In this document: one piece after another, positions 7,682 to 55,122 of the stretch
Layout of the letters: each line of letters starts with the position of its first letter
How positions within the stretch are numbered: position 1 is the stretch's first letter
The notes under the pieces: generated by a model
Databases searched by the model: none
What the model was told of the DNA's origin: nothing
What the model saw: only the letters and a program-made list of their open reading frames with translations
NCBI GenBank assembly: GCA_045541555.1
Contig: JAZQJH010000005.1
Coordinates: 752 to 64,751 of the forward strand
Direction: 5' to 3'
Source: Eubacteriales bacterium
Lineage (GTDB): Bacteria; Bacillota; Clostridia; Oscillospirales; QAKW01
Length of the DNA stretch: 64,000 bases
Translations under genes and position numbers: made by a program

Positions 7682-7691
7682 GGAATACAAT

Positions 7692-9290: not shown

Positions 9291-9293
9291 TAA

Positions 9294-10433: not shown

Positions 10434-10510
10434 TCAAAAAAAGGAGCGAAAATTTCGCACCTTTTTTCTTCTTTTTCTACATATAATAGTATGAAAAGGA
10501 GGAATTGAAG

Positions 10511-11110: not shown

Positions 11111-11318
11111 ATAATATTCAATGCACGTGAATAAAATACAGAGACAAAAGGGTGCATAATGGGAGTGTATATTCATTTTTGTGCATGCTATATAGAATCA
11201 GTGGCGTATATTTGGGAATAATTTTTAAATATTTTTGCATTTTATGCTTGACAACACGAATATTATGCATTATAATACAGACATCACATAAAAAATCCAA
11301 TGAAAAGAGGAACAAACA

Positions 11319-12086: not shown

Positions 12087-12154
12087 GTGAGAGAAATATT
12101 ACGGGGGGAGCCCTTGCTCCCCCTGTTTTTCTGCATTAGGAAGGAATAAAAACC

Positions 12155-13707: not shown

Positions 13708-13784
13708 GGAGGCATAGCTCAGCTGGTTAGAGTACTTGCTTGACATGCAAGGGGTCACTGGTTCGATTCCAGTTGTCTCCACCA
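13708..13784 (+). tRNA. tRNA-Val (anticodon GAC), CCA encoded
   Basis: Hand-folded cloverleaf. Acceptor GGAGGCA/TGTCTCC, D arm GCTC..GAGT, anticodon stem CTTGC/GCAAG with loop TTGACAT, T arm ACTGG-TTCGATT-CCAGT, discriminator A, then CCA. Confidence 0.9.
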
Positions 13785-33757: not shown

Positions 33758-33810
33758 AAAATGCGGTGTGCATCAGCACACCGCATTTTTTACCGGAGTA
33801 AAGACCGATC

Positions 33811-33970
33811 AAAAAGAGTGCAGATTTTGTCAATGCGACTGAAGGCGTATGTCGATACGCCGATAGGAGCATTGGCGGAAAGGAGAAAAATCAAAATCTG
33901 AAATCCGCTTTTGCGGATTTCTCCTATAAAAACTAAAAAAGGAAAGAGCAGAAACTCTTTCCTTTTTGTT
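33811..33970 (+). ncRNA. copy A of the repeated structured intergenic element
   Basis: Outer stem CAATGC (33831-33836) pairs with GCATTG (33869-33874). Inner hairpin GGCGTAT-GTCG-ATACGCC lies at 33844-33861. Hairpin AAATCCGC..GCGGATTT lies at 33901-33920. Hairpin GGAAAGAG..CTCTTTCC lies at 33941-33962. Confidence 0.5.
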
Positions 33971-34041
33971 TAACTTTTAAAATTGGCAGAAACCAAATGA
34001 TGAAATGTTATTTTCTCCGGTCTGTGCCTTTTTCATCGGTC

Positions 34042-34572
34042 TTAATAGTTGTAGCCCATTTCGAGAGCTTTGATATTCAGCTCCATCAGGTTGGCGCGCT
34101 TGGCGGAGACTACCTTTTTGAGGGCTTCGGTGATGTCGTCGAAGTTGACCAGTCCGGTCTCCTTGATCATCTTGCCCATCATGATCATATTGGCGAGGGT
34201 GGGAATGCCGGCATCCGCCGCCATCTTGGTGGCAGGGATATAGAAGGCATCTACGTCGCTGCGCTCGACCTTACGGCCGATCAAGGTACTATCCACGAAG
34301 ATCTTGCCGCCCTTGACGGTGGCTTCCTCGTATTTATCGAGAGAGGGCAGGTTCATGGCGATCAGCACGTCGGGGGTGGAGACGATGGGAGAGCCTACGG
34401 GATCATCGCTGAGGATGATGCTGCAGTTGGCGGTACCACCGCGCATTTCGGGACCGTAGGAGGGGAGCCAGCTGACTTCCTTTTGCTCCAGAAGACCCTT
34501 ATAAGCGATAAATTTACCGGCAAAGAGAACGCCCTGTCCGCCGAAACCGGCAATGAGAATTTGAGTTGTCAT
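34042..34572 (-). CDS. 2-oxoacid:ferredoxin oxidoreductase, gamma subunit
   Basis: The start is ILIAGFGGQGVLFAGK. 176 aa. Confidence 0.85.
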   Translation of the reverse strand: MTTQILIAGFGGQGVLFAGKFIAYKGLLEQKEVSWLPSYGPEMRGGTANCSIILSDDPVGSPIVSTPDVLIAMNLPSLDKYEEATVKGGKIFVDSTLIGRKVERSDVDAFYIPATKMAADAGIPTLANMIMMGKMIKETGLVNFDDITEALKKVVSAKRANLMELNIKALEMGYNY

Positions 34573-34575
34573 GGC

Positions 34576-35328
34576 TTATTTCTCCTCCTTTGCCCCGGAA
34601 CGGTCTTTATAAACGCCCAAAGGATAGTAAGGGATCATATTCTCGTCGATCCACTCCAAAGCCTTGGAGGGGGTCATACCCCAGTTGGTGGGGCAGGAAG
34701 AAACGACTTCAATAAGAGAGAAGCCTTTCCCCTCGATCTGGTTTTTGAAAGCCTTGAGGATCGCCTTCTTGGCGTTCTTGACGTTCTTCACGTTATTGAC
34801 TGCTACACGCTCGATGTACTCGGGGCCGTCCAGGGTGGAGAGCAGTTCGCTCACCTTGACGGGGTAGCCGGCGGTGGTGACGTCTCTGCCGTAGGGGGAG
34901 GTCTGGGTCACCTGCCCGGGCAGGGAGGTGGGCGCCATCTGACCGCCGGTCATGCCGTAGATGGCATTATTGACAAAGATGATGGTGATGTTTTCATTTC
35001 GGGTAGCGGCGTGAACCGTCTCGGCCATACCGATGGAGGCTAAGTCGCCGTCGCCCTGATAAGTAAAGATGACGTTCTCCGGCATACAACGCTTGAGACC
35101 GGTAGCGACTGCGGGGGCGCGGCCGTGAGCGGCCTCGACCATATCGCAGGCAAAGTAATCATAAGCCATAACGGCGCAACCAACCGGTGCAACACCGACG
35201 GTCTTGCCCACGACGCCCAGTTCATCCAGCGCCTCAGCGACCAAGCGGTGAATGATACCGTGGGTACAGCCGGGGCAATAATGGAGGGGAGCATCGGTCA
35301 ATGCTTTAGGTTTTTCAAATACGACCAT
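34576..35328 (-). CDS. 2-oxoacid:ferredoxin oxidoreductase, beta (TPP-binding) subunit
   Basis: YCPGCTHG and GDGD..IG motifs. 250 aa. Confidence 0.85.
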   Translation of the reverse strand: MVVFEKPKALTDAPLHYCPGCTHGIIHRLVAEALDELGVVGKTVGVAPVGCAVMAYDYFACDMVEAAHGRAPAVATGLKRCMPENVIFTYQGDGDLASIGMAETVHAATRNENITIIFVNNAIYGMTGGQMAPTSLPGQVTQTSPYGRDVTTAGYPVKVSELLSTLDGPEYIERVAVNNVKNVKNAKKAILKAFKNQIEGKGFSLIEVVSSCPTNWGMTPSKALEWIDENMIPYYPLGVYKDRSGAKEEK

Positions 35329-36389
35329 TATTGATTCTCCTTTGCAAGTTTTTCAATGGACTCCAGCACCTCTTCGGGGGTGGGAATCATACCGCCGACA
35401 CGGCAGCACAGCTCCACGGGCTTTTTGCAGCCGGTGGAAAGCTTGACGTCTTCGATCATCTGACCCATGGAAAGCTCCACAGAGAGGAATGCCTTGCATT
35501 GGTCAGCAGCCTTCGCCAGAACGTCCTTGGGGAAGGGCCAGAGGGTGATGGGACGGATCAGACCTACCTTGATGCCTGCCTTGCGGGCGGCGACCACAGC
35601 GTTTTTGGAAACGCGGGCGGCGATACCGAAGGCGACGACGCAGTACTCTGCATCCTCCATCATGAACTCTTCATACAGAACTTCGTTTTCCTCGATGGTC
35701 TTATACCGTTCGAAACGCTCGAAGTTGGTCTCTTCCAGAATTTCGGGCTTTAAGTAGAGAGAGTTGATGATATTATGCTTGCGCTCTTCCTTGGTGCCGC
35801 GCACTGCCCAGGGCTTCTCCACTTCTACGGGAGGAGTGTCCGGCAGTTCTACCGGCTCCATCATCTGACCCATGGTACCGTCGGCCAGCAGCATGGCAGG
35901 GACGCGGTATTTATCGGAAAGATCAAAGGCCTTGATGGTGAGGTCTGCCATTTCCTGAACGGAGGCAGGTGCCAGGACGATCAGGTGATAGTCGCCGTGA
36001 CCGCCGCCCTTGGTAGCCTGGAAATAGTCGGACTGGGAGGGCTGAATGCCACCCAAGCCCGGACCGCCACGCTGGACGTTAACGATCAGCGCCGGCAGAT
36101 CTGCACCGGCGATATAGGAGATACCCTCCTGCTTCAGGGAAACGCCGGGGCTGGAGGAAGAGGTCATAACACGGAAGCCGGCACCGGCAACGCCGTAGAC
36201 CATATTGATGGCTGCCACTTCACTCTCGGCCTGCAGGAAGGTGCCGCCGATCTTGGGCATCCGCTTGGCCATATAGGCCGCGATCTCTGTCTGGGGAGTG
36301 ATGGGATAACCGAAGTAATGGCGGCAGCCTGCCTTGATGGCGGCTTCTGCAATCGCTTCGTTACCTTTCATAAGTACTTTTTCTGCCAT
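35328..36389 (-). CDS. 2-oxoacid:ferredoxin oxidoreductase, alpha subunit
   Basis: MAEKVLMKGNEAIAEAAIKAGCRHYFGYPITPQTEI. ATG at 36389 with RBS GAGGTG. Confidence 0.85.
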   Translation of the reverse strand: MAEKVLMKGNEAIAEAAIKAGCRHYFGYPITPQTEIAAYMAKRMPKIGGTFLQAESEVAAINMVYGVAGAGFRVMTSSSSPGVSLKQEGISYIAGADLPALIVNVQRGGPGLGGIQPSQSDYFQATKGGGHGDYHLIVLAPASVQEMADLTIKAFDLSDKYRVPAMLLADGTMGQMMEPVELPDTPPVEVEKPWAVRGTKEERKHNIINSLYLKPEILEETNFERFERYKTIEENEVLYEEFMMEDAEYCVVAFGIAARVSKNAVVAARKAGIKVGLIRPITLWPFPKDVLAKAADQCKAFLSVELSMGQMIEDVKLSTGCKKPVELCCRVGGMIPTPEEVLESIEKLAKENQ

Positions 36390-36399
36390 TTTGAGCACC

Positions 36400-36606
36400 T
36401 CACTTCTCCACGGTGATCACGCAGTCGGGGCACATGGTGGCGCAGAATGCGCAGCCGATGCAGGCCGCCTGGTCGGTGATCACTGCGGGGGAATGTCCTT
36501 TCGCATTGATTTTGTCCTTGGCGATGGCGAGGATCTTCTTGGGGCAGGCGTCCACGCAGAGGGAGCAGCCTTTGCAAAGATCTTCGTTGAAGGTTACTTT
36601 TGCCAT
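36400..36606 (-). CDS. 2-oxoacid:ferredoxin oxidoreductase, delta (2x[4Fe-4S] ferredoxin) subunit
   Basis: 68 aa with CKGCSLCVDACP and CIGCAFCATMCP. ATG at 36606. Confidence 0.85.
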   Translation of the reverse strand: MAKVTFNEDLCKGCSLCVDACPKKILAIAKDKINAKGHSPAVITDQAACIGCAFCATMCPDCVITVEK

Positions 36607-36619
36607 AAGAATTTCTCCT

Positions 36620-37270
36620 TTAATAGTATTTCTTTTGCAAATCGAGGGGGAAGAAGTCTTCGCCGGTCTCTTTGCAAAGCTCCGCGGTAGCGGAGGTATA
36701 AACCACCGGCAAGCCGGCAAGAGCGGAAAGGGCTTCCGCCTTTTCCATGGTGTCCTTTACCGCTTGGAGGGTGGTATCTTCACCTAAATTGGAATTATTG
36801 ATGATGCCGGTACATTGGATATGCGCCGCCTGCTCGATCTCGCGCATGATGGTGAGCGCATCCTCCGGCGTGGGGGTCAGGGGACGGTAGAAATTGACGA
36901 CGAAATACATTTCATAGTCATTTTCCTCCAAGATCGCCGGTGCATACCGCCCGAGGGCGTAAGCACCTCGATCATCGCCGCCCACGTCCATCACCGCATG
37001 AAAGTCCCGGCGCTGAACCAGGCTATAAAGCTCGGCAGGCAGGGCAGGCAGATCCACGTTAGTATTGGCAAAGGCCGGAGAGATCAAGGGAATCCCTGCC
37101 TCCTCCAATTCCTTGGCGCTGTCCTTGGTGCGGAAATAGGGGTTGACGATGTCCAGGTCGGCAATCTTGACCGGCAGACCCTCTTTTTTCAACTTCAGAG
37201 CGAAGTTGACGGCCAGATTGGTCTTGCCGCTGCCGTAGTGACCGGCAAAAATATGTATTCTTTTAGCCAT
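36620..37270 (-). CDS. P-loop NTPase (MinD/ParA/SIMIBI-like) of unknown role
   Basis: The Walker A-like motif is FAGHYGSGKTNLA. 216 aa. The start overlaps the ilvE stop. Confidence 0.5.
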   Translation of the reverse strand: MAKRIHIFAGHYGSGKTNLAVNFALKLKKEGLPVKIADLDIVNPYFRTKDSAKELEEAGIPLISPAFANTNVDLPALPAELYSLVQRRDFHAVMDVGGDDRGAYALGRYAPAILEENDYEMYFVVNFYRPLTPTPEDALTIMREIEQAAHIQCTGIINNSNLGEDTTLQAVKDTMEKAEALSALAGLPVVYTSATAELCKETGEDFFPLDLQKKYY

Positions 37271-38342
37271 TGCAGACGAATTCGCTCCAGCCGAAGGGAT
37301 CCTCCTGCTTGCCCCACTGAATACCGGTCAGGTTATCGTAGAGCTTCTGGGTCAGAGGACCGATCTCGTTGTTGCAAACGGTGTACTCGGTGCCCTTATA
37401 GAAGAGATGACCGATGGGGGAGACGACGGCAGCGGTGCCGGTGCCCCAGGCTTCTTCCAGAGTGCCGTTCTGGACGGCGTCGAAGAGCTCATCCACGGAG
37501 AACAACCGCTCCTCTACCTCATAGCCCCAGGACTTCAAAAGCTCCACGCAGGACTTCCGGGTGATGCCGGGGAGGACGGAGCCGGTCAGCGCCGGGGTGA
37601 TGATCTTGCCGTTCACCTTGAACATGACGTTCATGGCACCGACTTCTTCGATATACTTACGCTCTACGCCGTCCAGCCAAAGAACCTGGGTATAGCCGTT
37701 GCGCTCGGCACGCTCGCCGGCGCGGAGAGAAGCGGCATAGTTACCGCCGCACTTGGCATAGCCGGTACCGCCGCGGACGGCACGGACATCCTCGGACTCG
37801 ATGGCGATCTTGACGGGGTTCAAGCCTTCGGCATAGTAAGCGCCCACGGGGGAGCAGATGATGGCGAAGGTGGCGTTATGGACGGCGTGGACGCCCAGAT
37901 GGGGGTCGTTACCGAAGAGGAACGGACGGATATAAAGGGAAGTGCCCTCGGAATGGGGAACCCAATCCTTTTCCAATTCCACGATGGTTTTGATGATATC
38001 CAAGCAGGCTTCCTCGTCGATCTCCGGCAGGCAAAGACGCTCTGCGGAGTTGTTCAGCCGCTTGATGTTCTCCATGGGGCGGAAGAGGCGGATGCTGCCG
38101 TCAGCAGCGCGGTAAGCCTTCATGCCCTCGAAGATCTCTGCACCGTAGTGCAGGACGGTAGAGGCCGGATGGATAGGCATCGGGCCAAAGGGGACGATGC
38201 GTGCATCATGCCAGCCCTCCTCCGTATTGTAGTCCATCAGGAACATATGGTCGGTAAAGATGCGGCCAAAGCCCAATTTGGACTCATCGGCAGGACGCTC
38301 CTTGGGAGCGGCAGTCTTGGTGATTTTGATTTCGTACTTCAT
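37263..38342 (-). CDS. ilvE: branched-chain amino acid aminotransferase
   Basis: 359 aa. FGRIFTDHMF, YGAEIFEGMKAY and the fold-type IV pattern are present. Confidence 0.9.
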   Translation of the reverse strand: MKYEIKITKTAAPKERPADESKLGFGRIFTDHMFLMDYNTEEGWHDARIVPFGPMPIHPASTVLHYGAEIFEGMKAYRAADGSIRLFRPMENIKRLNNSAERLCLPEIDEEACLDIIKTIVELEKDWVPHSEGTSLYIRPFLFGNDPHLGVHAVHNATFAIICSPVGAYYAEGLNPVKIAIESEDVRAVRGGTGYAKCGGNYAASLRAGERAERNGYTQVLWLDGVERKYIEEVGAMNVMFKVNGKIITPALTGSVLPGITRKSCVELLKSWGYEVEERLFSVDELFDAVQNGTLEEAWGTGTAAVVSPIGHLFYKGTEYTVCNNEIGPLTQKLYDNLTGIQWGKQEDPFGWSEFVCNG

Positions 38343-38363
38343 ATGTATTCTCCTCTCTGAAAA

Positions 38364-40658
38364 TTACAGCTTATTGCGTTGGATCTTACCGCTGACCGTC
38401 TTGGGAAGGCTATCCCGGAAGACGACCACACGGGGATATTTATAGGGCGCGGTGCGCGCCTTGACGTAATCCTGGATCTCTTTTTTGAGCTCGTCGGTGG
38501 GCTCGGTGCCCTTGACCAGCACGATGCTTGCCTTGACCACCTGGCCGCGAACCTCATCCGGCATGGCGGAGACGCCGCACTCCAGGACGTAGGGAAGCTC
38601 CATGATGACGTTTTCGATCTCGAAGGGTCCGATGCGGTAGCCGGAGGATTTGATGACGTCGTCTACCCGACCCACGTACCAGAAATAACCGTCTTCATCC
38701 CGCCAAGCGGTATCGCCGGTGTGATAATAGCCGTCGTGCCAGCATTCGGCGGTCTTTTCTTCGTCTTTATAGTAACCCTTGAAGAGGCCGCAGGGTGCGC
38801 CCTTGCTGACGTTGATACAGATCTCACCCACGTCACCCACCGGCACGTCCTTGCCGTCGGCATCCAGCAGATGGATGTCATAAAGGGGAACCGGCTTACC
38901 CATAGAGCCCAGCCGCGTCTTGGTACCTGCCAGATTGGCCAGCGCTACGGTAGTCTCGGTCTGACCGAAGCCTTCCATGATCTGCAGACCGGTGGCCTTT
39001 TCAAACTGACGGAATACCTCGGGGTTGAGGGCTTCGCCGGCGGTGGTCATATGCTCGATGGAAGAAAGATCGAATTTGGAAAGATCCTGCTTGATCATCA
39101 GCCGCAGCATGGTGGGCGGCGCGCAGAAGGTGGTGATATTATACTTGGCGAACATCGGCAGAATGTCGTCGGCATCGAAGCGATCGAAGTCGTAGACAAA
39201 GAGGCCGGCTTCGCAAAGCCACTGACCGTAGATCTTACCCCAGGCGGCTTTCGCCCAGCCGGTATCGGAGATGGTCAGGTGCAGACCCTCGGGATTGATG
39301 CAATGCCAATACTTGGCGGTGATCAGGTGACCCAAAGGATATTTATAACTATGCATGGCAATCTTGGGATTGCCGGTGGTGCCGGAGGTGAAGTACATCA
39401 GCATGGGATCGTCGCCGCAGGGAGCGCCCTCGCCTCGATCGTAGCGGCCGGTATAGAGCTCGTACTCTGCATCAAAGGAACGCCAGCCCTCCATGGTGCC
39501 GTTCACCATCAGCTTATGCTCCAGGGTGGGGCAATGGGGCGCGGCTTTATCCACTTCTACCGCCACGTTATCGTCGCAGGTGCAGACCACCATCTTGACG
39601 CCGGCTTTATTGATGCGGTATTCGATATCATGCTCTTTTAACTGGTTGGTGGCAGGGATGGCCACCGCGCCGATCTTATGCAACGCCAGTATACAGAACC
39701 AGAACTGATAGTGCCGCTTCAGCACCAGCATGACCTTATCGCCCTTTTGGATGCCCAAGGATTTAAAGTAGTTGGCAGTCTGGGAGGAGGCGCGCTTCAT
39801 ATCGGAGAAGGTGAAGCGGCGCTCGGTGCCGTCCTTGCTGATATGGAGCATCGCCAGCTTCTCCGGCTGCTCCCGACCCATCCGGTCGATGACGTCAAAG
39901 GCAAAGTTGAAGGAATTCTCATTCTTAAAGGAGATGGCCTTGGGGACGCCGTTCTCATCTTCGTCCACAAAAGCATAGTCCTGCCAGATGCGCTTGCGAT
40001 CTGCCACCTTCTTTTTCGCCGGGGCAATGAAGTCCCGGGTCTTGCCGGCGTGCACCAGCTTGGTGATGGGCTCGCTGGCAGGGTTCAGCACGATGGCGTA
40101 GAAGATACAGTCCTGATCCTCCACGGCGATCATGCCGTGGGGAGTGGAGGAGTCGTAATAAATACTGTCTCCTTCATGGAGGATCTCCACGTGGTCGCCT
40201 ACCTGCACTTTCAAAGCGCCCTTGACCACGATATCACATTCCTGCCCCTCATGGGTGGTCAGCTCGATATCCGCATTCTCGGACTGGGCATTATAGTCCG
40301 ATACCACGTAAAGGGGCTCTGCAATTCTGTTCTTAAAGGAAGATGCCAGATTATAATAGGTCATGCCGTGCGCCTTCTGGATCTCCTGGCCTTCACCCTT
40401 ACGAGTGACGGTATAGCCTGCCAGACGAGGACCGGTACCTTCGATGATCTCGGTGACGTCCACGTTCAGCGCCAAAGCGCAGCGATAGAGGAACGCAAAG
40501 TTCAGATCCTGCTCGCCTGCCTCGCAGCGAAGATATTCCTCTTCGCTGACGCCGGTCTTCAGCGCCATCTCCGCCTGGGTATAGCCAATAATTTCTCGCA
40601 GCGTTTTGATACGCTGCGCCATTTCCTGAATTTTAAATTCAAGTCCGGTTGCTTTCAT
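38364..40658 (-). CDS. fusion protein: XRE HTH + cupin + AMP-forming short/medium-chain acyl-CoA synthetase (behind the Val T-box)
   Basis: The N-terminus reads RIKTLREIIGYTQAEMALKTGVSEEEY (HTH) then HEGQE..GD..H..GDS.YYDS..PH (cupin). The C-terminus carries YFTSGTTGNPK, ISDTGW, YHTGD and GRVDDVIKSSGYRIGPFEIE. Confidence 0.8.
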   Translation of the reverse strand: MKATGLEFKIQEMAQRIKTLREIIGYTQAEMALKTGVSEEEYLRCEAGEQDLNFAFLYRCALALNVDVTEIIEGTGPRLAGYTVTRKGEGQEIQKAHGMTYYNLASSFKNRIAEPLYVVSDYNAQSENADIELTTHEGQECDIVVKGALKVQVGDHVEILHEGDSIYYDSSTPHGMIAVEDQDCIFYAIVLNPASEPITKLVHAGKTRDFIAPAKKKVADRKRIWQDYAFVDEDENGVPKAISFKNENSFNFAFDVIDRMGREQPEKLAMLHISKDGTERRFTFSDMKRASSQTANYFKSLGIQKGDKVMLVLKRHYQFWFCILALHKIGAVAIPATNQLKEHDIEYRINKAGVKMVVCTCDDNVAVEVDKAAPHCPTLEHKLMVNGTMEGWRSFDAEYELYTGRYDRGEGAPCGDDPMLMYFTSGTTGNPKIAMHSYKYPLGHLITAKYWHCINPEGLHLTISDTGWAKAAWGKIYGQWLCEAGLFVYDFDRFDADDILPMFAKYNITTFCAPPTMLRLMIKQDLSKFDLSSIEHMTTAGEALNPEVFRQFEKATGLQIMEGFGQTETTVALANLAGTKTRLGSMGKPVPLYDIHLLDADGKDVPVGDVGEICINVSKGAPCGLFKGYYKDEEKTAECWHDGYYHTGDTAWRDEDGYFWYVGRVDDVIKSSGYRIGPFEIENVIMELPYVLECGVSAMPDEVRGQVVKASIVLVKGTEPTDELKKEIQDYVKARTAPYKYPRVVVFRDSLPKTVSGKIQRNKL

Positions 40659-40689
40659 ACTCGTAAAATTTCCTTTCCCGGCGAGCCTA

Positions 40690-40985
40690 TTTTAAGAAAA
40701 TAAGGGGCTCGCCTCAAAGATATGATTTCTTTGAGACGAGCCTTGAAAATACTTCAATACCCGCGGTACCACTCAAATTGCATCTTGCGATGCCCCTCAG
40801 GCTCCATTAAGCCTTATGCATTAACGCAGCAGTCACGGGGAGGTTCTACTAAGGAATTCCTTTTCTTCCTCCCGGCTCAGAAGCTACAAACATCAGCATC
40901 CTCAGAACGGCTCGCACCGACCGCCGCTTCTCTGACTTCGGAAAATCTCATGCACTCTTCGTCACAGCCTTAAAAGTAGTTTATC
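40690..40985 (-). promoter_or_regulatory. T-box leader, putative Val specifier (GUA, plus-strand 40885-40887)
   Basis: Minus-strand elements: promoter TTGACA / 17 nt / ATAAAC; stem I GCTGTGACGAAG...CTTCTGAGC; AGAGA and GGTGCGAG; T-box AATTTGAGTGGTACCGCGGG; terminator 40701-40744 plus U-run. Confidence 0.75.
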
Positions 40986-41044
40986 ACATCTTGCGAGAAT
41001 TTGTCAATAGTTTATTAATATATTTATATATTATTTAGACTGCC

Positions 41045-41210
41045 GAAAAAGCGTGCAGATTTCGTCAACTCGACCGAAGGCGTATGTGATACGTCGATGG
41101 GAGAGTTGGCGGAAAGCAGAAAATTTCAATCAAATCCGCATTGGCGGATTTTTCCTTATCGAAAAAACAGAGAGAAAGAGTACAAACCCTCCCTCTCTCT
41201 GCGTTTTTAA
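41045..41210 (+). ncRNA. copy B of the repeated structured intergenic element
   Basis: Outer stem CAACTC (41066-41071) pairs with GAGTTG (41103-41108). The inner hairpin lies at 41079-41095. Hairpin AAATCCGC..GCGGATTTTT lies at 41132-41153. A second hairpin lies at 41168-41201. Confidence 0.5.
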
Positions 41211-41272
41211 AATAATTGAAAAACCAGTGTTTTTTGCTTTTCTGCGGTCTGTGCCTTTTTCGGGAGTCGAGG

Positions 41273-43540
41273 TTAGAGCTTATTTCTTTGGATTTTACCG
41301 CTGATGGTCTTGGGCAGTTCGTCCTTGAAGACGATGACCCGGGGATACTTATAGGGGGCGGTATGGGTCTTGACGTAGTTCTGGATCTCCTTTTTGAGTT
41401 CCTCGGTGCCTTCGGTGCCGGGGGTCAGCACGATGCTGGCCTTGACCACCTGACCGCGGATCTCATCGGGAGCGGCGGAAACGCCGCATTCCAGGACGTA
41501 GGGAAGCTCCATGATGACGCTTTCGATCTCAAAGGGTCCGATGCGGTAGCCGGAGGATTTGATGACGTCGTCGATCCGGCTGACGTACCAGAAATAACCG
41601 TCCTCGTCCCGCCATGCGGTATCGCCGGTGTGATACATGCCGTCGTACCAGGCGTTGTCGGTCTTCTCCTGATCGCGGTAATACTGCTTAAAGAGACCGC
41701 AGGGGATGGACTTATCGGTATGGATGACGATTTCGCCGGTCTCGCCATCTGCCACCGGGTTGCCCTCGGGGTCAACGATATCCACGTCGAACTGGGGAGA
41801 TGCCTTGCCCATAGAGCCGATCTTGGGGGCGGTGCCGACCAGGTTGCCGATGGCAAGGGTGGTCTCGGTCTGACCGAAGCCCTCCATGATCTCCAGGCCG
41901 GTGGCATCCCGGAACTGCTTGAATACTTCGGGGTTCAAGGCCTCGCCGGCGGTGGTCATATGATGGATGGAGGAGAGATCGTATTTGGAGAGATCTCCCT
42001 TGATGAGCATTCTCAGCATGGTGGGAGGAGCGCAGAAGGTGGTGATATTGTACTTGGCGAACATGGGGAGGATCTCGTCGGCATCAAAGCGGTCGAAATC
42101 GTAGACGAAGACGGCGCCCTCGCAGAGCCATTGACCGTAGAGCTTACCCCAGAGGGATTTGCCCCAGCCGGTATCGGAGATGGTCAGATGCAAGCCGACC
42201 CGCTCACAACAATGCCAGTACTTAGCGGTAACAAAGTGCCCCAGGCCATAAGTATGCTTATGGGCGGCCATCTTGGGATTGCCGGTGGTGCCGGAGGTGA
42301 AGAACATCAGGGCGATCTCATCACCGCCGCCGCAATCGGCAGTCCGCTCAAATTTGGTGGAGAACCGGGCAAATTCGGTGTTGAAATCATGCCAGCCCTC
42401 TTTCGGCTGACCGACGATGATCTTGGTCTTGAGGCAGTCGCATTTTTCTGCGGCGGCTGCGGCGATATCGGCGGTATCGCCGTCGGAGGTGCAGACGATG
42501 GCGCTGACACCGGCAGCGGTATAACGATATTCAAAGTCGTGCTCCTTGAGCTGGTTGGTGGCCGGGATGGCGATGGCACCCAGCTTATGCAGGGCGATCA
42601 TGGCGAACCAGAACTGATAGTGGCGCTTCAGCACCAGCATGACCCGGTCGCCCTTCTTGATGCCCAGAGAAGCAAAATAGTTTGCGGTCTGGTTGCTGTA
42701 TTTCTTGATATCCTTGAAGGTGAAGCGGCGCTCATTTTTATGAACGTCCAGATGGAGCATCGCCAGCTTATCGGGATACTTATCGGCGATGGCGTCCACG
42801 ATGTCAAAGCCGTAGTTGAAGTGTTCGGTATTGACGAACTCGATCTTTTGCAGACTGCCATGCTCGTCTTCCTGGGTCTTGACGAACTTTTCGCAGATGA
42901 GCTCCTCAGACTTTTTGGCGGTCACGATGCTCTTGCGGACGGTAGACTCCTTGGTCTCCTCGCCGGGCAATACCACTGCCAAAAAGACGCAGTCGGCACC
43001 GTCTACGGCGATCATGCCGTGGGGAGTAGAAGAGTTATAATAGATGCTGTCGCCCTCATGCAGGAGTTCGGTATGTTCGCCGATCTGCACCTTCAGGGAG
43101 CCGCTGAGGATCAGGTCAAATTCCTGACCGCTGTGCTTGGTGAGGTGGATGGGCTTATTCTGCTGAGCGGGATCGTATTCATAGCGTACGTGGTACGGCT
43201 CCGCGATTTTATCCCGGAACATCGGTGCGAGGTTGCGGATGTCAATGCCGTCCTCCTGCGCGGTGGTCTGACCCTGACCCTTCCGGGTGACGGTATAGCT
43301 GGAAAGACGGGCGGAATGACCCTCCAAAAGCTCGGTCAGCTCCACGTCAAAAGCCAATGCACACTTATGTATAAAGGTAAAGGGAATATCCGCTTGAGCG
43401 TTTTCGTAAATCAGATACTGCTCCCGGCTGACTTCTGTTTTGGCAGCCATTTCGCCGACCGACCAGCCCAGAATATCACGCATCTCCTTGATACGGGCGG
43501 CGATCTCAGTCAATCGAAGCATTGCGGTGTTGGTGTTCAT
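41273..43540 (-). CDS. fusion protein: XRE HTH + cupin + AMP-forming acyl-CoA synthetase, paralog (behind the Ile T-box)
   Basis: Same architecture and long identical blocks (DFDRFDAD.ILPMFAKYNITTFCAPPTML). The true start is the ATG at 43540 (MNTNTAML), after the leader terminator. The ORF-track start at 43657 lies inside the T-box. Confidence 0.8.
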   Translation of the reverse strand: MNTNTAMLRLTEIAARIKEMRDILGWSVGEMAAKTEVSREQYLIYENAQADIPFTFIHKCALAFDVELTELLEGHSARLSSYTVTRKGQGQTTAQEDGIDIRNLAPMFRDKIAEPYHVRYEYDPAQQNKPIHLTKHSGQEFDLILSGSLKVQIGEHTELLHEGDSIYYNSSTPHGMIAVDGADCVFLAVVLPGEETKESTVRKSIVTAKKSEELICEKFVKTQEDEHGSLQKIEFVNTEHFNYGFDIVDAIADKYPDKLAMLHLDVHKNERRFTFKDIKKYSNQTANYFASLGIKKGDRVMLVLKRHYQFWFAMIALHKLGAIAIPATNQLKEHDFEYRYTAAGVSAIVCTSDGDTADIAAAAAEKCDCLKTKIIVGQPKEGWHDFNTEFARFSTKFERTADCGGGDEIALMFFTSGTTGNPKMAAHKHTYGLGHFVTAKYWHCCERVGLHLTISDTGWGKSLWGKLYGQWLCEGAVFVYDFDRFDADEILPMFAKYNITTFCAPPTMLRMLIKGDLSKYDLSSIHHMTTAGEALNPEVFKQFRDATGLEIMEGFGQTETTLAIGNLVGTAPKIGSMGKASPQFDVDIVDPEGNPVADGETGEIVIHTDKSIPCGLFKQYYRDQEKTDNAWYDGMYHTGDTAWRDEDGYFWYVSRIDDVIKSSGYRIGPFEIESVIMELPYVLECGVSAAPDEIRGQVVKASIVLTPGTEGTEELKKEIQNYVKTHTAPYKYPRVIVFKDELPKTISGKIQRNKL

Positions 43541-43565
43541 GGTGTTTTCTCCTTTACAAAATTTA

Positions 43566-43837
43566 AAAATAAAAAGACTCGTCTCAAATTTCTTTGAGAC
43601 GAGTCTTGAATAAACAATACCCGCGGTACCACTCAAATTGCATCCAAAGGATGCCACTCAGGCTCTATCAAGCCGTATGCATTCACGCAGCAATCACGAA
43701 GGGCGCCTACCTATCGGACCCTCAGCTCGGAAGTGATGGGAAATTCAGCAGTCCTTTACCGGGATCACACCACCCCCGGCTCTCTTTGAAAATCGTTGCC
43801 GATTCCGTCTTCGTCATCGCTTTTACAATATGAAATT
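43566..43837 (-). promoter_or_regulatory. T-box leader, putative Ile specifier (AUC, plus-strand 43735-43737)
   Basis: Promoter TTGACA (43867-43872, rc) / 17 nt / TAAAAT (43844-43849, rc). Stem I is GCGATGACGAAG...CTTCCGAGC. AGAGAG and GGTGGTG are present. The T-box is AATTTGAGTGGTACCGCGGG. The terminator AAGACTCGTCTC..GAGACGAGTCTT is followed by a U-run. Confidence 0.8.
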
Positions 43838-43888
43838 ATGATTATTTTAGCACCGCTTTTCGGCGTTGTCAATAGTTTTTTGAAAAAA

Positions 43889-46339
43889 TTATTTCAGTCC
43901 CAATTGCTCGATGGAATTTTCTCTCATCTTGTATTTCAGGATCTTACCGGCGGCGTTCATGGGGAAGGAATCGGTGAGGATGAAATAGCGGGGTACCTTA
44001 TGCATCGCCATATGGGCGGCGCCATAAGCGCGCATCTCTTCCTCATCGGAGGTCTGACCCTCATGCAGGATGATCCAGGCGCAGCATTCCTCGCCGTAGC
44101 GCTGGTCGGGAACGCCCACCACCTGCACGTCGCGCACCTTGGGATGGGTGAGATAGAATTCCTCGATCTCCCGGGGGTAGAGGTTTTCACCGCCGCGGAT
44201 GATCATATCCTTCAGCCGTCCGGTAATCTTGTAGTAACCGTCGGGGGTGCGGCAGGCAATATCGCCGCTATGCAGCCAGCCATCGGCGTCGATGGCCTCG
44301 GCAGTCGCCTTGGGCATTTTATAATAGCCCTTCATGATGTTGAAGCCGCGTGCCACGAACTCGCCGTTCTCGCCGTCCGGCAATTCTTCGCCGGTCTCCG
44401 GGTCGATGATCTTACACTCCACGCCGGGGAAGGCGGAACCGACGGTTTCCACCCGGTGATCCAGATCCTCATTGACCTCGCCCATGGTACAGCCGGGGGA
44501 TGCCTCGGTCTGACCATAAACGCTGATGATCTCGCGCATATTCATCTCCACCGAGGCGCGGCGCATCAGATCTGCCGGGCAGTTGGCACCGGCCATGATG
44601 CCGGTACGCATATGGGAGAAATCGGTCTTGCCGAAATCCTCATGGTTAAACATGGCGATGAACATGGTCGGCACGCCGTTAAAGCAGGTGATCTTTTCAT
44701 CGTTGATGCAGGCCAGCGAGGACTTGGGAGAGAAGTAGGGCATGGGGCAGATGGTGCCGCCATGGGTCATCAGGTTGGTCATGGAAAGGACCATGCCGAA
44801 GCAATGGAACATCGGCACCTGGATCATCATACGATCCGCGGTGGAGATATCCATCCGGTCGCCGATGGTCTTGCCGTTATTGATGATATTGCGGTGGGTC
44901 AGCATGACGCCCTTGGGGAAGCCGGTGGTACCGGAGGTGTACTGCATATTGCAGACGTCGTCCGGCTTGACGGCCGCCGCCAGGCGGCGAACCTCCTCCC
45001 GGGGAATGGCATCGCCTTTTTCCACGAACTCATCCCACTCTAAGCAGCCCGCCATCTTAAAGCCGACGGTAATGACGTTGCGCAGGAAGGGCAGATTTTT
45101 GGAATAGAGGGGCTCGCCGGGCCTGGTATTCTTCAGCTCGGGGCAGAGCTCTTCGATAATCCCCTTATAATCGGAATCTCTGCAGTTTTCGATCATGACG
45201 AGGGTATGGGTATCGGACTGGCGGAAGAGGTATTCCGCCTCATGGATCTTATAAGCGGTATTGACTGTTACCAGCACTGCACCGATCTTGACACTGGCCC
45301 AGAAGATGATAAACCATTGGGGGATATTGGTCGCCCAGATGGATACGTGGTGACCGGGCTTGACGCCCATAGCAATGAGGGCGGCTGCCGTGCGGTCCAC
45401 GTCCTCCCGGAACTGGGCATAGGTACGGGTATAATCCAGGGTGGTGTACTTAAAGGCGTACTGGTCGGGGTAGCGCTCCACCATCTCGTCCAATACCTGA
45501 GAGAAGGTCAGGTCGATGACCTCGTACTTCTTCCAGGGGAAGGTGCCGGTCTTATCCCGGTTATAAAAGATCTCCCGGGGCTTTGCGGCGGTGGGGAGTT
45601 TGCCGGAAATATAGCTGATGAAATGGGTCAATACAATATCGGGGTCGGTGATCTCTTCATTCCAGTCCACCGCCAGATAGCCCTCGTAGTTGAGGGAGCG
45701 GAGGGCGTTCATGAAGTCTGCAACCGGCAGAACGCCGTCACCCAAGAGGACGTCCTTGCCCTCTTTGCGGTCACCGATCCGGACGTAGTTGATATAAGCA
45801 CCCAAGTTCTGAATGGTGGTATCGGCATCTTCCTTGGCGGTGAAATAGGTCTCCCGGATATTCCAGCAGACGCCGATGCAGGCAGAGCCGAAGCTGCGGA
45901 TGATCTCGATGATCTTTTGGGTGTCTGCCAGAGCGCCGACGGTCTCGATCAGGATGAGAGCGCCATTTTTCTCTGCTTTTTTAATGGCAGGGGCGAAGAC
46001 CTTTTTCAGCGCATCGGAATCCGGCTCGCCGATCTGCACCACTACGCCCAATGCGGAGGCACGCGCCGCCAGGCTGACGTATTTTTTTAGCAGTTCGGGA
46101 TCGGTGGCGGACGTCACCGGCTCGGGGCAGGTAAGGAAAGAAACGCCGATATGGCGATTGATCAGCTTGCGCTTGGCGGCGGCGTTGACCGCAGAGCGGA
46201 GGATGCTATCCTCATGGGCTTCCTTTTCGGCGATGGGGTCGAAAAGCTCAAAGCCGTCAAAGCCGTATTCAGCCGTCAGATTGCAGAGGTTGATATAACT
46301 CTCTGCCGGTACATTTTTGGTTGAAAAAACTAATTTCAT
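43889..46339 (-). CDS. fusion protein: xylose-isomerase-like TIM barrel + FadD-type AMP-forming acyl-CoA ligase
   Basis: 816 aa. The N-terminal ~260 aa follow the sugar-phosphate isomerase/epimerase-like pattern (..GFDGFELF..). The C-terminus carries MQYTSGTTGFPKGVMLTH, WLHSGD and GRLKDMIIRGGENLYPREIE. Confidence 0.7.
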   Translation of the reverse strand: MKLVFSTKNVPAESYINLCNLTAEYGFDGFELFDPIAEKEAHEDSILRSAVNAAAKRKLINRHIGVSFLTCPEPVTSATDPELLKKYVSLAARASALGVVVQIGEPDSDALKKVFAPAIKKAEKNGALILIETVGALADTQKIIEIIRSFGSACIGVCWNIRETYFTAKEDADTTIQNLGAYINYVRIGDRKEGKDVLLGDGVLPVADFMNALRSLNYEGYLAVDWNEEITDPDIVLTHFISYISGKLPTAAKPREIFYNRDKTGTFPWKKYEVIDLTFSQVLDEMVERYPDQYAFKYTTLDYTRTYAQFREDVDRTAAALIAMGVKPGHHVSIWATNIPQWFIIFWASVKIGAVLVTVNTAYKIHEAEYLFRQSDTHTLVMIENCRDSDYKGIIEELCPELKNTRPGEPLYSKNLPFLRNVITVGFKMAGCLEWDEFVEKGDAIPREEVRRLAAAVKPDDVCNMQYTSGTTGFPKGVMLTHRNIINNGKTIGDRMDISTADRMMIQVPMFHCFGMVLSMTNLMTHGGTICPMPYFSPKSSLACINDEKITCFNGVPTMFIAMFNHEDFGKTDFSHMRTGIMAGANCPADLMRRASVEMNMREIISVYGQTEASPGCTMGEVNEDLDHRVETVGSAFPGVECKIIDPETGEELPDGENGEFVARGFNIMKGYYKMPKATAEAIDADGWLHSGDIACRTPDGYYKITGRLKDMIIRGGENLYPREIEEFYLTHPKVRDVQVVGVPDQRYGEECCAWIILHEGQTSDEEEMRAYGAAHMAMHKVPRYFILTDSFPMNAAGKILKYKMRENSIEQLGLK

Positions 46340-46344
46340 GGTGG

Positions 46345-47712
46345 TTAACCCTCAAATACGATCTTGTTGAGTGCATTGACGTAGGCGCGGATGCAGGCAC
46401 CGATAATATCGGTGGAAACGCCGTTGCCGGAATAAAGCTTGCCGTTTGCACGCAGGCGAATCAGCGCGGAGCCCACCGCCTCGCGGCCTTTGGTGACGGC
46501 TTGAACCTGGAAATCGTCCAGCTCATAATGATGGCCGACGATCTGCTCAATGGCGTGGAAGGCGGCGTCGATGGGGCCGTCGCCGGTGGAAACACCGGTC
46601 AGCTTTTCGCCGTCTTTTTCCAGGGTCAGATTGGCGGTGGCGGTAATGATATTGCCGCTGTTGACGACGTAATTGATGACGTGGAAGGTAGAAGGTACCT
46701 GCATGGCGGCGGAGGCGACGATAGCTTCCATCTCCCGGGCACCGATGGTCTCTTTCTTCTCGATGACGCGCTTGAATTCCTCATAGACCTTGCCCTGATC
46801 CTCATCGGAGAGGTCGTAGCCCAGCTCTTTTACCGCGGCGGCGATCTCAGCCAAGGTGGCGGTATTGCCGAGGGTGGCGGTGCTTTCGGTCTCTGCTACG
46901 GCAGGGGCGGCAGTCCGTTCTTCCTTGCCGCCGGCGATGGAGGCGATGATCTTATGGATCGCCGTATTGTCCAGATTGGTGGCGGCGGAGAGGGTGTCCT
47001 CTTTGGCGCGGAAGATGTCTGCCAGAATATCGGCGCGGAGCGCACCCTTGCAGGCCGCGGTCTTGATGCCGTCGGCACCGGCTTTGACTGCCTCAATGGC
47101 AGAGGAGGCAGCCATGGAAAGGGCATCAGAGGGCTGGACGTAGACCTGAAGACCGCAGGCGGTCTTGATCTCCCGGACGATGGCTGTATAATCCTCGGGG
47201 AAGGAGATGCCGCTATCGTCGCAGACGGTGATGGCGGAAGCGCCGTTTTCCTCAGCGGTCTTGCAGCAGGCGGCGATAAAGCCGTCCTCTGCGCGGGAGG
47301 CATCCCGGGCGACCAGCTCTACCCTGGCGCAAAGAGCGGATGCTTCTTTACAAAGAGCCGCCAATTTTTCCAGCATCTTGGGGGCTTTCAAATGATAGGT
47401 ATATTCCATCTGCACCGTAGAGGTGGGCAGGACGATCTGCAGGATGGGATCCTGCGCGTCCTTGATGCACGCCCAAGCGGCGGCAGGCGCATCGCCCACG
47501 TCGATAGCAACAGACGCATTTTTGACAGCGGAAGCAATGGTTCTGGCGACCACTGCATCCTCTTTTTCGTTCAAAAGCGCGGGAAGCTCAATGGTGTCCA
47601 CCCCGGCTGCGTCCAGCAGCTGGGCAATATTCAGCTTCTCCCGGAAGGAGAGGGCATTTTTTTGCTCGGCATAAGCGCGCAACGTAACGTCGGAAACAAT
47701 GATCTTTTTCAT
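46345..47712 (-). CDS. 2-isopropylmalate-synthase-like protein with degenerate catalytic motifs and an intact LeuA regulatory/dimerisation domain
   Basis: DVTLRAYAEQ replaces DTTLRDGEQ, and VYVQPSDALSMAA replaces H.HND.G.A. The C-terminal GDGPIDAAFHAI..GSALIRL..G.GVSTDII is conserved. The ATG at 47712 follows the leader terminator. Confidence 0.7.
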   Translation of the reverse strand: MKKIIVSDVTLRAYAEQKNALSFREKLNIAQLLDAAGVDTIELPALLNEKEDAVVARTIASAVKNASVAIDVGDAPAAAWACIKDAQDPILQIVLPTSTVQMEYTYHLKAPKMLEKLAALCKEASALCARVELVARDASRAEDGFIAACCKTAEENGASAITVCDDSGISFPEDYTAIVREIKTACGLQVYVQPSDALSMAASSAIEAVKAGADGIKTAACKGALRADILADIFRAKEDTLSAATNLDNTAIHKIIASIAGGKEERTAAPAVAETESTATLGNTATLAEIAAAVKELGYDLSDEDQGKVYEEFKRVIEKKETIGAREMEAIVASAAMQVPSTFHVINYVVNSGNIITATANLTLEKDGEKLTGVSTGDGPIDAAFHAIEQIVGHHYELDDFQVQAVTKGREAVGSALIRLRANGKLYSGNGVSTDIIGACIRAYVNALNKIVFEG

Positions 47713-47730
47713 AACTTCAAATCCTTTCAA

Positions 47731-48012
47731 TAAAAAATCCCGCAAAGAGAAAAAACTCTTTGCGGGATGATCAAACAAATAGAATGACCACGGTACCACC
47801 CGGCCTTGCTTCCTTTTTTAGGGGAAACCACTTTACGGACTCCATCAAGCCCTTGATCTATGACGGGATCTCCCGGGCACTCTTACTAAAGTTCAGAACA
47901 CCAGCTCCGATACGAGACAGGCACCTGCGTCCTCTACCGCCTCGCACCGTCCGGCGGCTCTCTGAAAGAAGCGTTGCAAGCCCTTAATATCATCATCGCA
48001 TTTTTTAAATTT
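47731..48012 (-). promoter_or_regulatory. T-box leader, putative Leu specifier (CUC, plus-strand 47914-47916)
   Basis: Promoter TTGACA (48043-48048, rc) / 17 nt / TAAAAT (48020-48025, rc). Stem I is GCGATGATGATA...TATCGGAGC. AGAGAG and GGTGCGAG are present. The T-box is GGCCGGGTGGTACCGTGG. The terminator CCCGCAAAGAG..CTCTTTGCGGG is followed by a U-run. Confidence 0.8.
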
Positions 48013-48044
48013 GTTAAATATTTTAATGCAACTTTTTGGAAATG

Positions 48045-48833
48045 TCAATACTTTTTTAAAATTTTTTCGGCGTTGCGGTAAGCAATTTTTTCCTTATCCT
48101 CATCCCGGAGGTTCATCTGCAGAAAGTATTCCGCTTCTTCCTTGGGATCCCAAAGGGGGAAGTCGCTTCCGTAGAGCACCCGATCAGCGCCGTAGAGGTC
48201 GATATATTTATAAAAATCCTCTTCGCTCATGAACTGACGGGAGCTGGAAAGATCCACCCAGCAGTTTTCGTTTTTCAGAAGCTCATACGCCATTCCCTGA
48301 ACGCCCCAACCGCCAAAATGGGCACCGATGACCTCCAGCTTCGGAAAGTTTTCCAGCACCTTCAAAAGCCGCCGGGGGTGGGAGTAATCGTAGCGCGGAT
48401 CGCCGGTATGCATGATGATGGGCATTTTGCCCTGGATATAATCATACATGGGGAAAAGCCGCTCGTCGTCGATATTAAAAAGCTGGGTATCGGGATGGAT
48501 CTTGATGCCGAGAAGTCCGCTCTTTTCGATAAACTTCAGTTCTTCCTCCAGATCGTCCATGGCGGCGTGAACGGTGCCAAAGCCATGAAATTCCGGGTGG
48601 AGCGCCACTTCGTCGATAATATTCTGATTGATCTTGCGAACCTGCTTGGGATTGAGTGCTACCGGGAGCACCACGAACTCCGAAATGCCGCCGGCCTTGC
48701 CACGCTCCAGCAAGAATTCTGCCGTGCCGTGGACACCGCCCTGATCCATTTCGTAGAAATCCCGGACTGCCTGGGTTGCCTTATCGGCGATGGCTTCGGG
48801 ATAAATATGGGTATGAAAGTCAATTAATTTCAA
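48045..48833 (-). CDS. amidohydrolase-family (TIM-barrel metal-dependent hydrolase) protein
   Basis: KLIDFHTHIYP is near the N-terminus. I prefer the TTG at 48833 (RBS AAGGTG). The promoter TTGACA / 17 nt / TAAACT would place the transcription start near the ORF-track GTG at 48869. Confidence 0.6.
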   Translation of the reverse strand: MKLIDFHTHIYPEAIADKATQAVRDFYEMDQGGVHGTAEFLLERGKAGGISEFVVLPVALNPKQVRKINQNIIDEVALHPEFHGFGTVHAAMDDLEEELKFIEKSGLLGIKIHPDTQLFNIDDERLFPMYDYIQGKMPIIMHTGDPRYDYSHPRRLLKVLENFPKLEVIGAHFGGWGVQGMAYELLKNENCWVDLSSSRQFMSEEDFYKYIDLYGADRVLYGSDFPLWDPKEEAEYFLQMNLRDEDKEKIAYRNAEKILKKY

Positions 48834-54857: not shown

Positions 54858-54884
54858 CTTTATCCCTCCTATAAAAAATAATAC

Positions 54885-55122
54885 AAAAAAACAGCCCGTA
54901 AAGAACGTGGAATACATTCTTTACGGGCTATTATCATAGTCTTGTAAAAAAGATGGCACTCCACAAATCCTGTGACAGTCCGGCGCATATTCTGCGGCGA
55001 CCCAGCAACCAAATTCCGGGGGTCTGGAACCTGGAAACTTCGGCGGTAGTGCCTTTCACCGGTGCTCCTTTTAAACCCATTGAGTACCGTTACTGATCAA
55101 TACCGCGCCTCCATCGGCTATT
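54885..55122 (-). promoter_or_regulatory. lysine riboswitch (L-box) with intrinsic terminator
   Basis: Minus-strand motifs in order are GAGGCGC, AGTAA, GGTGAAAGG, CGCCGAAG, GCTGGG, CTGTCA and GTGGAGTGC. The terminator is AGCCCGTAAAGAA..TTCTTTACGGGCT plus T7. The promoter is TTGACA / 18 nt / TACTAT. Confidence 0.8.

Follow-up and report, generated by a model that had tools for sequence, protein, structure and literature searches.

The locus examined here lies on the minus strand at positions 34042-48048 of a 64,000-nucleotide stretch of the metagenome-assembled genome of an uncultured Eubacteriales bacterium (Clostridia; contig JAZQJH010000005.1; the whole stretch is hereafter called the window). 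The question it raises is why three T-box leaders reading leucine, isoleucine and valine codons should stand in front of genes for three AMP-forming acyl-CoA ligases, a four-subunit 2-oxoacid:ferredoxin oxidoreductase (VOR) and the aminotransferase IlvE. The answer that we propose, and consider likely, is that the locus encodes a salvage route induced by starvation for branched-chain amino acids (BCAAs), in which isovalerate, 2-methylbutyrate and isobutyrate would be turned into leucine, isoleucine and valine, respectively. For rumen cellulolytic bacteria and many anaerobes of the gut, branched-chain volatile fatty acids ("isoacids") are a requirement or a benefit, and these acids are fed to dairy cattle. 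Moreover, the reductive carboxylation of branched acids to BCAAs in rumen bacteria and methanogens was reportedly described by Allison, Bryant and Robinson in labelling work of the 1960s-80s. T-boxes, VOR, IlvE, MacS/MbcS-type ligases and the reductive carboxylation of branched acids are all already known.

T-box leaders were sought with Infernal cmscan against the Rfam model RF00230, in E-value mode on positions 40500-48200 and in gathering mode on the whole window. In E-value mode, exactly three matches were obtained, each on the minus strand and full-length, covering model positions 1-219: leader 1 at 47760-48005 (91.2 bits, E 1.7e-19), leader 2 at 43592-43826 (84.5 bits, E 9e-18) and leader 3 at 40729-40974 (78.6 bits, E 3e-16). 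An independent, structure-aware parser was concordant for each of them, and by both methods stem I is complete, with the K-turn, the specifier loop (codon plus purine), the AGAGA bulge and the GGUG distal loop. As specifiers, the cmscan alignments place a Leu codon (CUC at 47916-47914, then G), an Ile codon (AUC at 43737-43735, then A) and a Val codon (GUA at 40887-40885, then G). These are the triplets named in an earlier inspection of the letters without database searches (the sequence-only reading), whose inventory of stem-I parts, T-box sequence and terminators was also recovered in full by cmscan and a terminator search. Each triplet lies directly 5' of the basal stem-I helix, which is GAUA/UAUC in leader 1 and GAAG/CUUC in leaders 2 and 3, and which varies by compensatory change among leaders (GAUA/UAUC, GAAG/CUUC, GGAG/CUCC, GGAA/UUCC and GAAA/UUUC). 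The T-box cores of the three leaders, located in order at 47789-47801, 43622-43634 and 40762-40774, read GGGUGGUACCGUG and GAGUGGUACCGCG; both contain the UGGU bulge, which implies an A73 discriminator in the tRNA. The sole tRNA of the window, a tRNA-Val(GAC) at 13708-13784 on the plus strand, does have A73, in agreement with the bulge and with the check that had been suggested. As this tRNA mismatches GUA at the wobble position, the cognate effector of leader 3 should be a tRNA-Val(UAC) encoded elsewhere. Furthermore, the 3' region of each leader, when folded alone, forms the terminator (z -3.5 to -5.5), and the terminator stems overlap the antiterminator in its 3' strand, so that the two folds are mutually exclusive. 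The three leaders look like canonical, default-off transcription-attenuation T-boxes.

The arrangement of promoters and terminators, all on the minus strand, shows how the leaders relate to each other. The top three sigma-70 promoter-like sites of positions 33500-48500 lie immediately upstream of the three leaders, and the top three terminators of the same interval are the leader terminators, with stems of 13-15 bp and a U-run. Promoter P1 of the Leu unit (48020-48048) is the top-ranked site, TTGACA-17-TAAAAT with 11 of 12 consensus matches, and an equivalent of it is present before all orthologous leaders. Promoter P2 of the Ile unit (43844-43872) is TTGACA-17-TAAAAT with an extended TG, and promoter P3 of the Val operon (40978-41007) is TTGACA-18-TAAACT, also with an extended TG; hence the 17-nt spacing initially assigned to all three promoters holds for P1 and P2, while that of P3 is 18 nt. 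The leader terminators are found at 47737-47768 (13 bp stem plus U-run, overlapping the antiterminator 3' strand), 43574-43607 (15 bp stem) and 40706-40742 (15 bp stem). Since the Ile unit is closed by a strong terminator of its own (41167-41202; 14 bp stem and UUUUUU), it is monocistronic and the locus consists of three separate transcription units, the Val operon being closed by two terminator hairpins (33900-33967). Coupling of the three leaders by read-through, as a design principle, was rejected on account of the separate promoters, the Ile-unit terminator and the Leu unit, whose location and strand vary among genomes. Consequently, the leaders are "in series", as they had been called, in their position and not in their function. 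P2 and P3 have in common a 13-nt string, AAACTATTGACAA, across the -35 element (43860-43875 and 40998-41012). As orthologous promoters conserve nothing beyond TTGACA, this string is probably a remnant of ligase duplication and not an operator.

We then focused our attention on the gated genes. Profile matches supported all the gene identities given in the sequence-only reading (three ligases, a LeuA-like protein, IlvE, a P-loop protein and a four-subunit oxidoreductase); for the AMP-forming ligases, the identity was right and the domains fused to them had been missed. Ligase B, behind the Ile leader (41273..43540, 755 aa), and ligase C, behind the Val leader (38364..40658, 764 aa), are paralogues with 61% identity. 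Both combine an N-terminal module of about 245 residues, made of an XRE-type helix-turn-helix (HTH_3) and a cupin (Cupin_2), with an AMP-forming ligase of the MacsMa/MbcS type. MacsMa, the medium-chain acyl-CoA synthetase of M. acetivorans (PDB 3ETC), is the closest solved structure to their catalytic domains (E 7e-193 over the whole domain), and MbcS (NF047394) is the best NCBIfam model, at 452.7 bits for B and 440.1 bits for C. Both characterized enzymes act on short branched acids. For MacsMa, 2-methylbutyrate is the preferred and the only fully productive substrate, and acids of C3-C8 are adenylated in the first half-reaction (PMC10455477), while MbcS is active on 2-methylbutyrate and isobutyrate, works poorly with isovalerate and not at all with acetate (PMC10026030). 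Poor handling of isovalerate by this family would explain why a different ligase family is found behind the Leu leader. The acyl-pocket segment GWGKxxWGK and the ANL core motifs are conserved in B and C, in which the equivalent of MacsMa Trp259 is W464 and W473, respectively, according to an alignment to 3ETC with MacsMa numbering calibrated on the positions of Gly459-Tyr460-Lys461 (PMC10455477).

The strongest link between specifier and enzyme comes from other genomes. Ten window proteins and the T-box core motif were mapped onto 80 fetched loci from the genomes of other species (designated below by L numbers), and specifiers were read by the parser with the pattern UGA-N-H1 ... codon-R-H1'-N-GAG, the AG bulge and the GGUG loop being required in between. 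The parser was used instead of a stem-I covariance model; MAFFT mis-registered the stem-I helices, as in the Val leader. It reproduces the three specifiers obtained with cmscan in the window, the two methods agree on all nine leaders (9/9) of L018, L007 and L024, and the cases in which the parser failed are resolved by cmscan (L033, with AUC and GUC; L034 and L066, with AUC). In the mapped loci, the parser found Leu codons (CUC or CUG) before all seven LeuA-like/TIM-ligase units (7/7). Ligase-B-type genes were preceded by AUC in 32 cases and by GUA in one, and ligase-C-type genes by GUA in 17 cases and by AUC in six, the latter six being distant ligases for which best-hit typing is unreliable. 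Moreover, in a neighbour-joining tree of 83 ligases all Val-gated enzymes group into a single clade inside the Ile-gated ones; ligase B falls in the Ile-gated clade and ligase C in the monophyletic Val-gated clade, while the T-box-less ligases of non-Firmicutes are basal. Because the Val-gated enzymes constitute one clade within the Ile-gated ones, we conclude from the sequences that specifier and ligase lineage co-evolve, as substrate specialization predicts. A single position separates the two clades without cross-over, being Ala in 18/18 Val-clade enzymes and Gly in 93% of the Ile-gated ones. It corresponds to Gly460 in ligase B and Ala469 in ligase C, within the GWGKxxWGK motif and four residues before the equivalent of the acyl-pocket residue Trp259 of MacsMa, which makes it a plausible candidate specificity residue, with a smaller pocket for the smaller acid. 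Ligase B is thus presumed to be a 2-methylbutyrate-CoA ligase, and ligase C an isobutyrate-CoA ligase. The neighbourhood survey of related genomes that had been suggested therefore finds the codon-to-gene rule repeated (7/7 for Leu, an AUC lineage and a GUA sub-lineage). Of the original idea, that one T-box-gated ligase per BCAA feeds VOR and IlvE, every element open to checking stands, namely the leader anatomy with its specifiers, the identities of the genes and this conserved rule, while the ligase substrates and the salvage function, like the reductive direction of VOR and the response to tRNA, are what we infer from it and from gene content.

The N-terminal module of ligases B and C can be aligned from end to end with 1Y9Q, a regulator of V. 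cholerae. Throughout the family, the recognition helix of this module is rich in acidic residues (S/T-E-E-E-Y..E), and no conserved operator beyond the -35 and -10 elements was found in at least 60 promoter regions. Given these two observations, the module is probably non-DNA-binding, and a function of the fusions as BirA-like enzyme/repressors is unlikely on the same grounds.

The Leu unit is built differently. Its first gene encodes a LeuA-like protein of 455 aa (46345..47712, minus strand), with an HMGL-like barrel devoid of catalytic residues and a LeuA_dimer domain (Pfam E 2e-30). In an alignment to solved structures of isopropylmalate synthase (IPMS), RAYAEQ stands in place of RDGEQ and QPS in place of HxH. 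The Arg-Asp and His-x-His motifs are gone in 9/9 LeuA-like proteins (the window protein and eight orthologues), and the best IPMS score is 228 bits versus an equivalog cut-off of 532. As the catalytic motifs are absent and the score is far below the cut-offs, the protein is predicted not to be an IPMS and to be catalytically dead, which agrees with its previous description as an IPMS-like pseudoenzyme. Within the family, the regulatory domain is the best conserved part (54-70% identity versus 35-53% for the barrel), and in 8/8 cases the LeuA-like gene directly precedes that of the TIM-ligase. In the window this second gene encodes ligase A (43889..46339, minus strand, 816 aa), in which a TIM barrel (approximately residues 1-245) precedes a PRK12583-type AMP-forming acyl-CoA ligase. 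The barrel is xylose-isomerase-like, and its predicted model (predicted local distance difference test score of 89) resembles ketose 3-epimerases, YcjR and UlaE with TM-scores of 0.7-0.77 at 13-18% identity; among database relatives, it is known almost only as a ligase fusion. With 26% identity to the B/C type, ligase A belongs to a different ligase family, and it is presumed, solely from the Leu T-box and the gene context, to be an isovalerate-CoA ligase.

The enzymes required downstream of acid activation are found in the Val operon, in which ligase C is followed by IlvE, a P-loop protein, VorD, the VOR alpha, beta and gamma subunits and the two terminators, all on the minus strand. IlvE (37263..38342) is a class IV, type II aminotransferase, which passes NF009897 (480.6 bits versus a cut-off of 307) and also TIGR01123 (398.5 versus 250). 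VorD (36400..36606), the delta subunit, is a 2x[4Fe-4S] ferredoxin-like protein whose start is the ATG at 36606 and not the listed TTG at 36720. The alpha subunit (35328..36398) matches the VorB model NF005507 with 566 bits versus a cut-off of 399, and the thiamine pyrophosphate-binding beta subunit (34576..35328) and the gamma subunit (34042..34572) were assigned by profile matches; beta, gamma and delta score below their own equivalog cut-offs but have the expected domains. The P-loop protein (36620..37270, 216 aa) is an NTPase of the SIMIBI class with a Walker A motif. It is conserved, being always located between the last ligase and vorD in the mapped loci, and belongs to a family of at least 8000 relatives, all annotated as hypothetical. 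Some members of this family are fused to a VorD-like 2x[4Fe-4S] (Fer4) domain, in proteins of 281 aa (P0211; L004, ~12496-13340), and such a Rosetta-stone fusion suggests that the P-loop protein is physically linked to VOR. Its fold is generic SIMIBI, closest to signal recognition particle GTPases and HypB (TM-score ~0.6). A role as a NifH-like, ATP-driven electron donor was rejected, as there are no conserved cysteines and the fold is generic.

Regarding distribution, the database relatives of the HTH-cupin-ligase fusion number more than 8000, all of them generically named, and the fusion is encoded in at least 597 species-representative genomes. The carriers are mostly rumen and gut Oscillospiraceae, Acutalibacteraceae, Christensenellaceae and Ruminococcus, together with some Bacteroidales, Victivallales, one spirochaete and one methanogen-related archaeon (Methanomethylophilaceae). 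Among the mapped loci, 54 of the 64 from Firmicutes have a T-box core some 100 nt before the ligase, and none of the 15 from non-Firmicutes does. The recurrent layout is a T-box-ligase unit followed by T-box-ligase-P-loop-VorDABG, sometimes with IlvE after it; the T-box-LeuA-like-TIM-ligase unit is separate in other genomes, located elsewhere or on the opposite strand. Of the 37 Firmicute loci with enough downstream sequence, 14 have VOR and the P-loop gene right after the ligase array. VOR follows the last ligase of the array, and in genomes with a single ligase it is placed behind an Ile leader (L021, L023, L048 and L030). The HTH-cupin ligase adjoins P-loop-VorDABG in L079 (Methanomethylophilaceae, 5945-13400) and VorDABG in L072 (Spirochaetia, 3321-8725), both of which have no T-boxes, suggesting that the module is older and broader than its T-box control. 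Some loci depart from the common layout. In L033, from a Candidatus Pelethousia metagenome-assembled genome (769-9200, minus strand), P-loop-VorDABG-IlvE-LeuA-like-TIM-ligase form one operon with no T-box detected in front, while the HTH-cupin ligases that flank it are preceded by T-boxes for Ile and Val (GUC). In L044 (1647-1799), the T-box before an Ile-clade ligase matches only from stem II on (46.9 bits); stem I and the specifier seem to be missing, and this leader may be degenerate or truncated. The Ile (AUC) T-box of L066 (9380-9758) carries an insertion of ~121 nt between stems I and III.

Taken together, these observations suggest the following course of events. Each unit has a strong promoter and a T-box leader, at which transcription would be terminated by default. 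Uncharged tRNA-Leu, tRNA-Ile or tRNA-Val would pair with CUC, AUC or GUA and, through its NCCA end, with the UGGU bulge, which would stabilize the antiterminator and allow read-through of the cognate leader. Each leader would thereby free one dedicated AMP-forming ligase, which would convert its acid into the acyl-CoA while splitting ATP into AMP and pyrophosphate. The shared four-subunit VOR would then form the 2-oxo acid from acyl-CoA, CO2 and reduced ferredoxin by reductive carboxylation, and IlvE would transaminate it to the amino acid. AMP-forming ligases run toward acyl-CoA, and T-boxes are switched on at amino-acid shortage, which together argue for an anabolic direction of flux.

Several points weigh against this interpretation. 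The three window leaders score slightly below the RF00230 gathering score of 93 bits, for which reason the gathering-mode scan of the whole window omits them and returns the lysine riboswitch described below and one tRNA only; this shortfall is marginal and due to insertions, with orthologous Leu leaders reaching 110-119 bits and one orthologous Val leader 93.4 bits. Ligases B and C are far below the MbcS equivalog cut-off of 850 bits, and so are members of the same family and not equivalogs, and ligase A has no characterized close homologue, its best PDB matches being generic ANL enzymes. In 23 of the 37 informative loci, VOR and the ligase are not neighbours, and the locus contains neither a low-potential ferredoxin source nor an acid transporter. 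Lastly, VOR and IlvE are located solely behind the Val leader in this genome and the Ile unit is terminated, so that starvation for Leu only or for Ile only would have to use basal read-through or copies elsewhere. This puzzle, raised already by the sequence-only reading, stands for the genome under study and is softened by the genomes in which VOR lies behind an Ile leader. Basal read-through and second genomic copies are the simplest answers to it.

A further consideration of this kind is that branched acyl-CoAs could also enter lipid synthesis. The main function of the ligases might then be to provide branched acyl-CoA primers for the branched-chain fatty acids of membranes, as MbcS does in S. 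aureus, external branched acids being salvaged for lipids when BCAAs, the usual source of primers, are short. The closest NCBIfam model, MbcS, has precisely this documented role, and many T-box-ligase units stand alone, with downstream genes unrelated to BCAA metabolism. However, in the window and in the 14 of 37 informative loci the ligase is directly upstream of VOR, the window operon includes IlvE, and neither VOR nor IlvE is needed for lipid priming. In addition, the T-box signal would be relieved solely by making the amino acid, and the Leu unit contains a protein with a LeuA-type regulatory domain. We therefore regard lipid priming as the main role of these ligases as unlikely, though it is the alternative that fares best; the two roles are not mutually exclusive and can coexist.

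Less probable still, and by a clear degree, is that the ligases use other small acids (straight-chain, aromatic or hydroxy acids) and that the BCAA T-boxes represent a broader starvation response. The position of ligase A, distant from any characterized relative, would accommodate such substrates, as would the scores of B and C below equivalog cut-offs and the C3-C8 range adenylated by MacsMa in its first half-reaction. Nevertheless, the correspondence between codon and ligase lineage is strict over dozens of species, MacsMa completes the full reaction with 2-methylbutyrate, and the partners in the locus are enzymes of the VOR and IlvE type. Finally, a catabolic cluster running from BCAA through 2-oxo acid to acyl-CoA, with the ligases as unrelated passengers, is highly improbable: VOR and IlvE are reversible and are used in the oxidative direction by amino-acid fermenters, but induction by uncharged tRNA is the wrong signal for degrading a scarce amino acid, no ptb/buk or ADP-forming synthetase genes for ATP harvest were found within the window, AMP-forming ligases spend ATP in making acyl-CoA, and T-box gating is most consistent for the ligases.

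Returning to the salvage route, the proteins that it leaves over, namely the pseudo-LeuA, the TIM barrel, the HTH-cupin module and the P-loop NTPase, may be sensor/regulatory or assembly parts acting at the protein level, an assignment that we make with low confidence. A more specific proposal, possible but to our mind rather doubtful, is that beside the RNA switch each ligase has a repurposed protein-level amino-acid sensor, and that the P-loop protein is an assembly factor or partner of VOR. On the Leu side, the dead LeuA with its Leu-type regulatory domain would dock on the TIM barrel of ligase A, while for Ile and Val the XRE-cupin module of ligases B and C, itself blind to DNA, would play the equivalent part. 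If this were true, the committed step, which is costly in ATP, would be subject to feedback inhibition by its end product, giving a two-tier control that mirrors that of IPMS, acetohydroxyacid synthase and threonine deaminase in the de novo pathways.

The surroundings of the locus are unrelated to BCAAs: the window flanks encode an amidohydrolase, ABC exporters, MatE and BipA, and no other BCAA genes were found within the window. A lysine riboswitch (RF00168, 88 bits) at 54946-55121 on the minus strand is directly upstream of a gene for a 604-aa membrane protein of the NhaC-like Na+/H+ antiporter family (53103-54917, minus strand), which is probably a Lys-regulated transporter. Just upstream of this riboswitch lies a gene for a LexA-like protein (HTH_3 and Peptidase_S24; 55184-55816, minus strand), also unrelated to the BCAA locus.

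If the salvage interpretation is correct, the T-box specifiers serve as natural labels, by which Ile corresponds to one ligase lineage, Val to a derived one and Leu to a different ligase family, and a 60-year-old piece of rumen and gut physiology acquires gene-level, substrate-specific and testable predictions. In the literature searched, no gene assignments were found for isoacid carboxylation, nor for its acid-activating enzymes or their specificities; the genes described here would offer markers for reading isoacid use from metagenomes. The locus would also place a salvage route under T-box control, for which the same literature holds no prior description, and it brings to light four conserved protein modules: the pseudo-LeuA, the TIM-ligase, the HTH-cupin-ligase and the VOR-linked P-loop NTPase.

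In comparison with known systems, the leaders resemble those of B. subtilis tyrS, ileS and ilv-leu in their full canonical anatomy, with stems II/III, the 14-nt T-box and transcription attenuation, and the BCAA specifiers are as in the leaders of ileS, leuS, valS and ilv-leu. They differ in what they gate, as the genes here encode acyl-CoA ligases, VOR and IlvE and not aminoacyl-tRNA synthetases, de novo biosynthesis enzymes or transporters. Neither a CoA ligase nor a ferredoxin oxidoreductase is listed in the open-access T-box regulon survey of Wels et al. 2008. The full-text literature searched, which includes a recent MbcS preprint and leaves some key paywalled papers outside, yielded no account of CoA ligases or VOR under T-box control, nor of the present fusions. 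The catalytic domains of ligases B and C are like those of MacsMa and MbcS, both of which prefer alpha-branched short acids, and share with them the GWGKxxWGK segment with the Trp259 equivalent; unlike these enzymes, they carry an N-terminal XRE-HTH and cupin, are T-box gated and, in the Val clade, have Ala for Gly, and the role proposed for them is amino-acid synthesis in place of the lipid priming of MbcS. LeuA itself is subject to Leu feedback through its C-terminal regulatory domain. The LeuA-like protein keeps that conserved domain, in the HMGL-like barrel plus LeuA_dimer layout of LeuA, but lacks the active-site motifs and is always found immediately upstream of a TIM-barrel ligase. Finally, the oxidoreductase has the delta/alpha/beta/gamma four-subunit composition of VOR, and the proposed sequence of reactions is that of the classical reductive carboxylation of branched acids. 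In contrast to that physiology as classically described, the genes are here gathered in one regulated locus, with a ligase for each amino acid and a P-loop NTPase before VorD.

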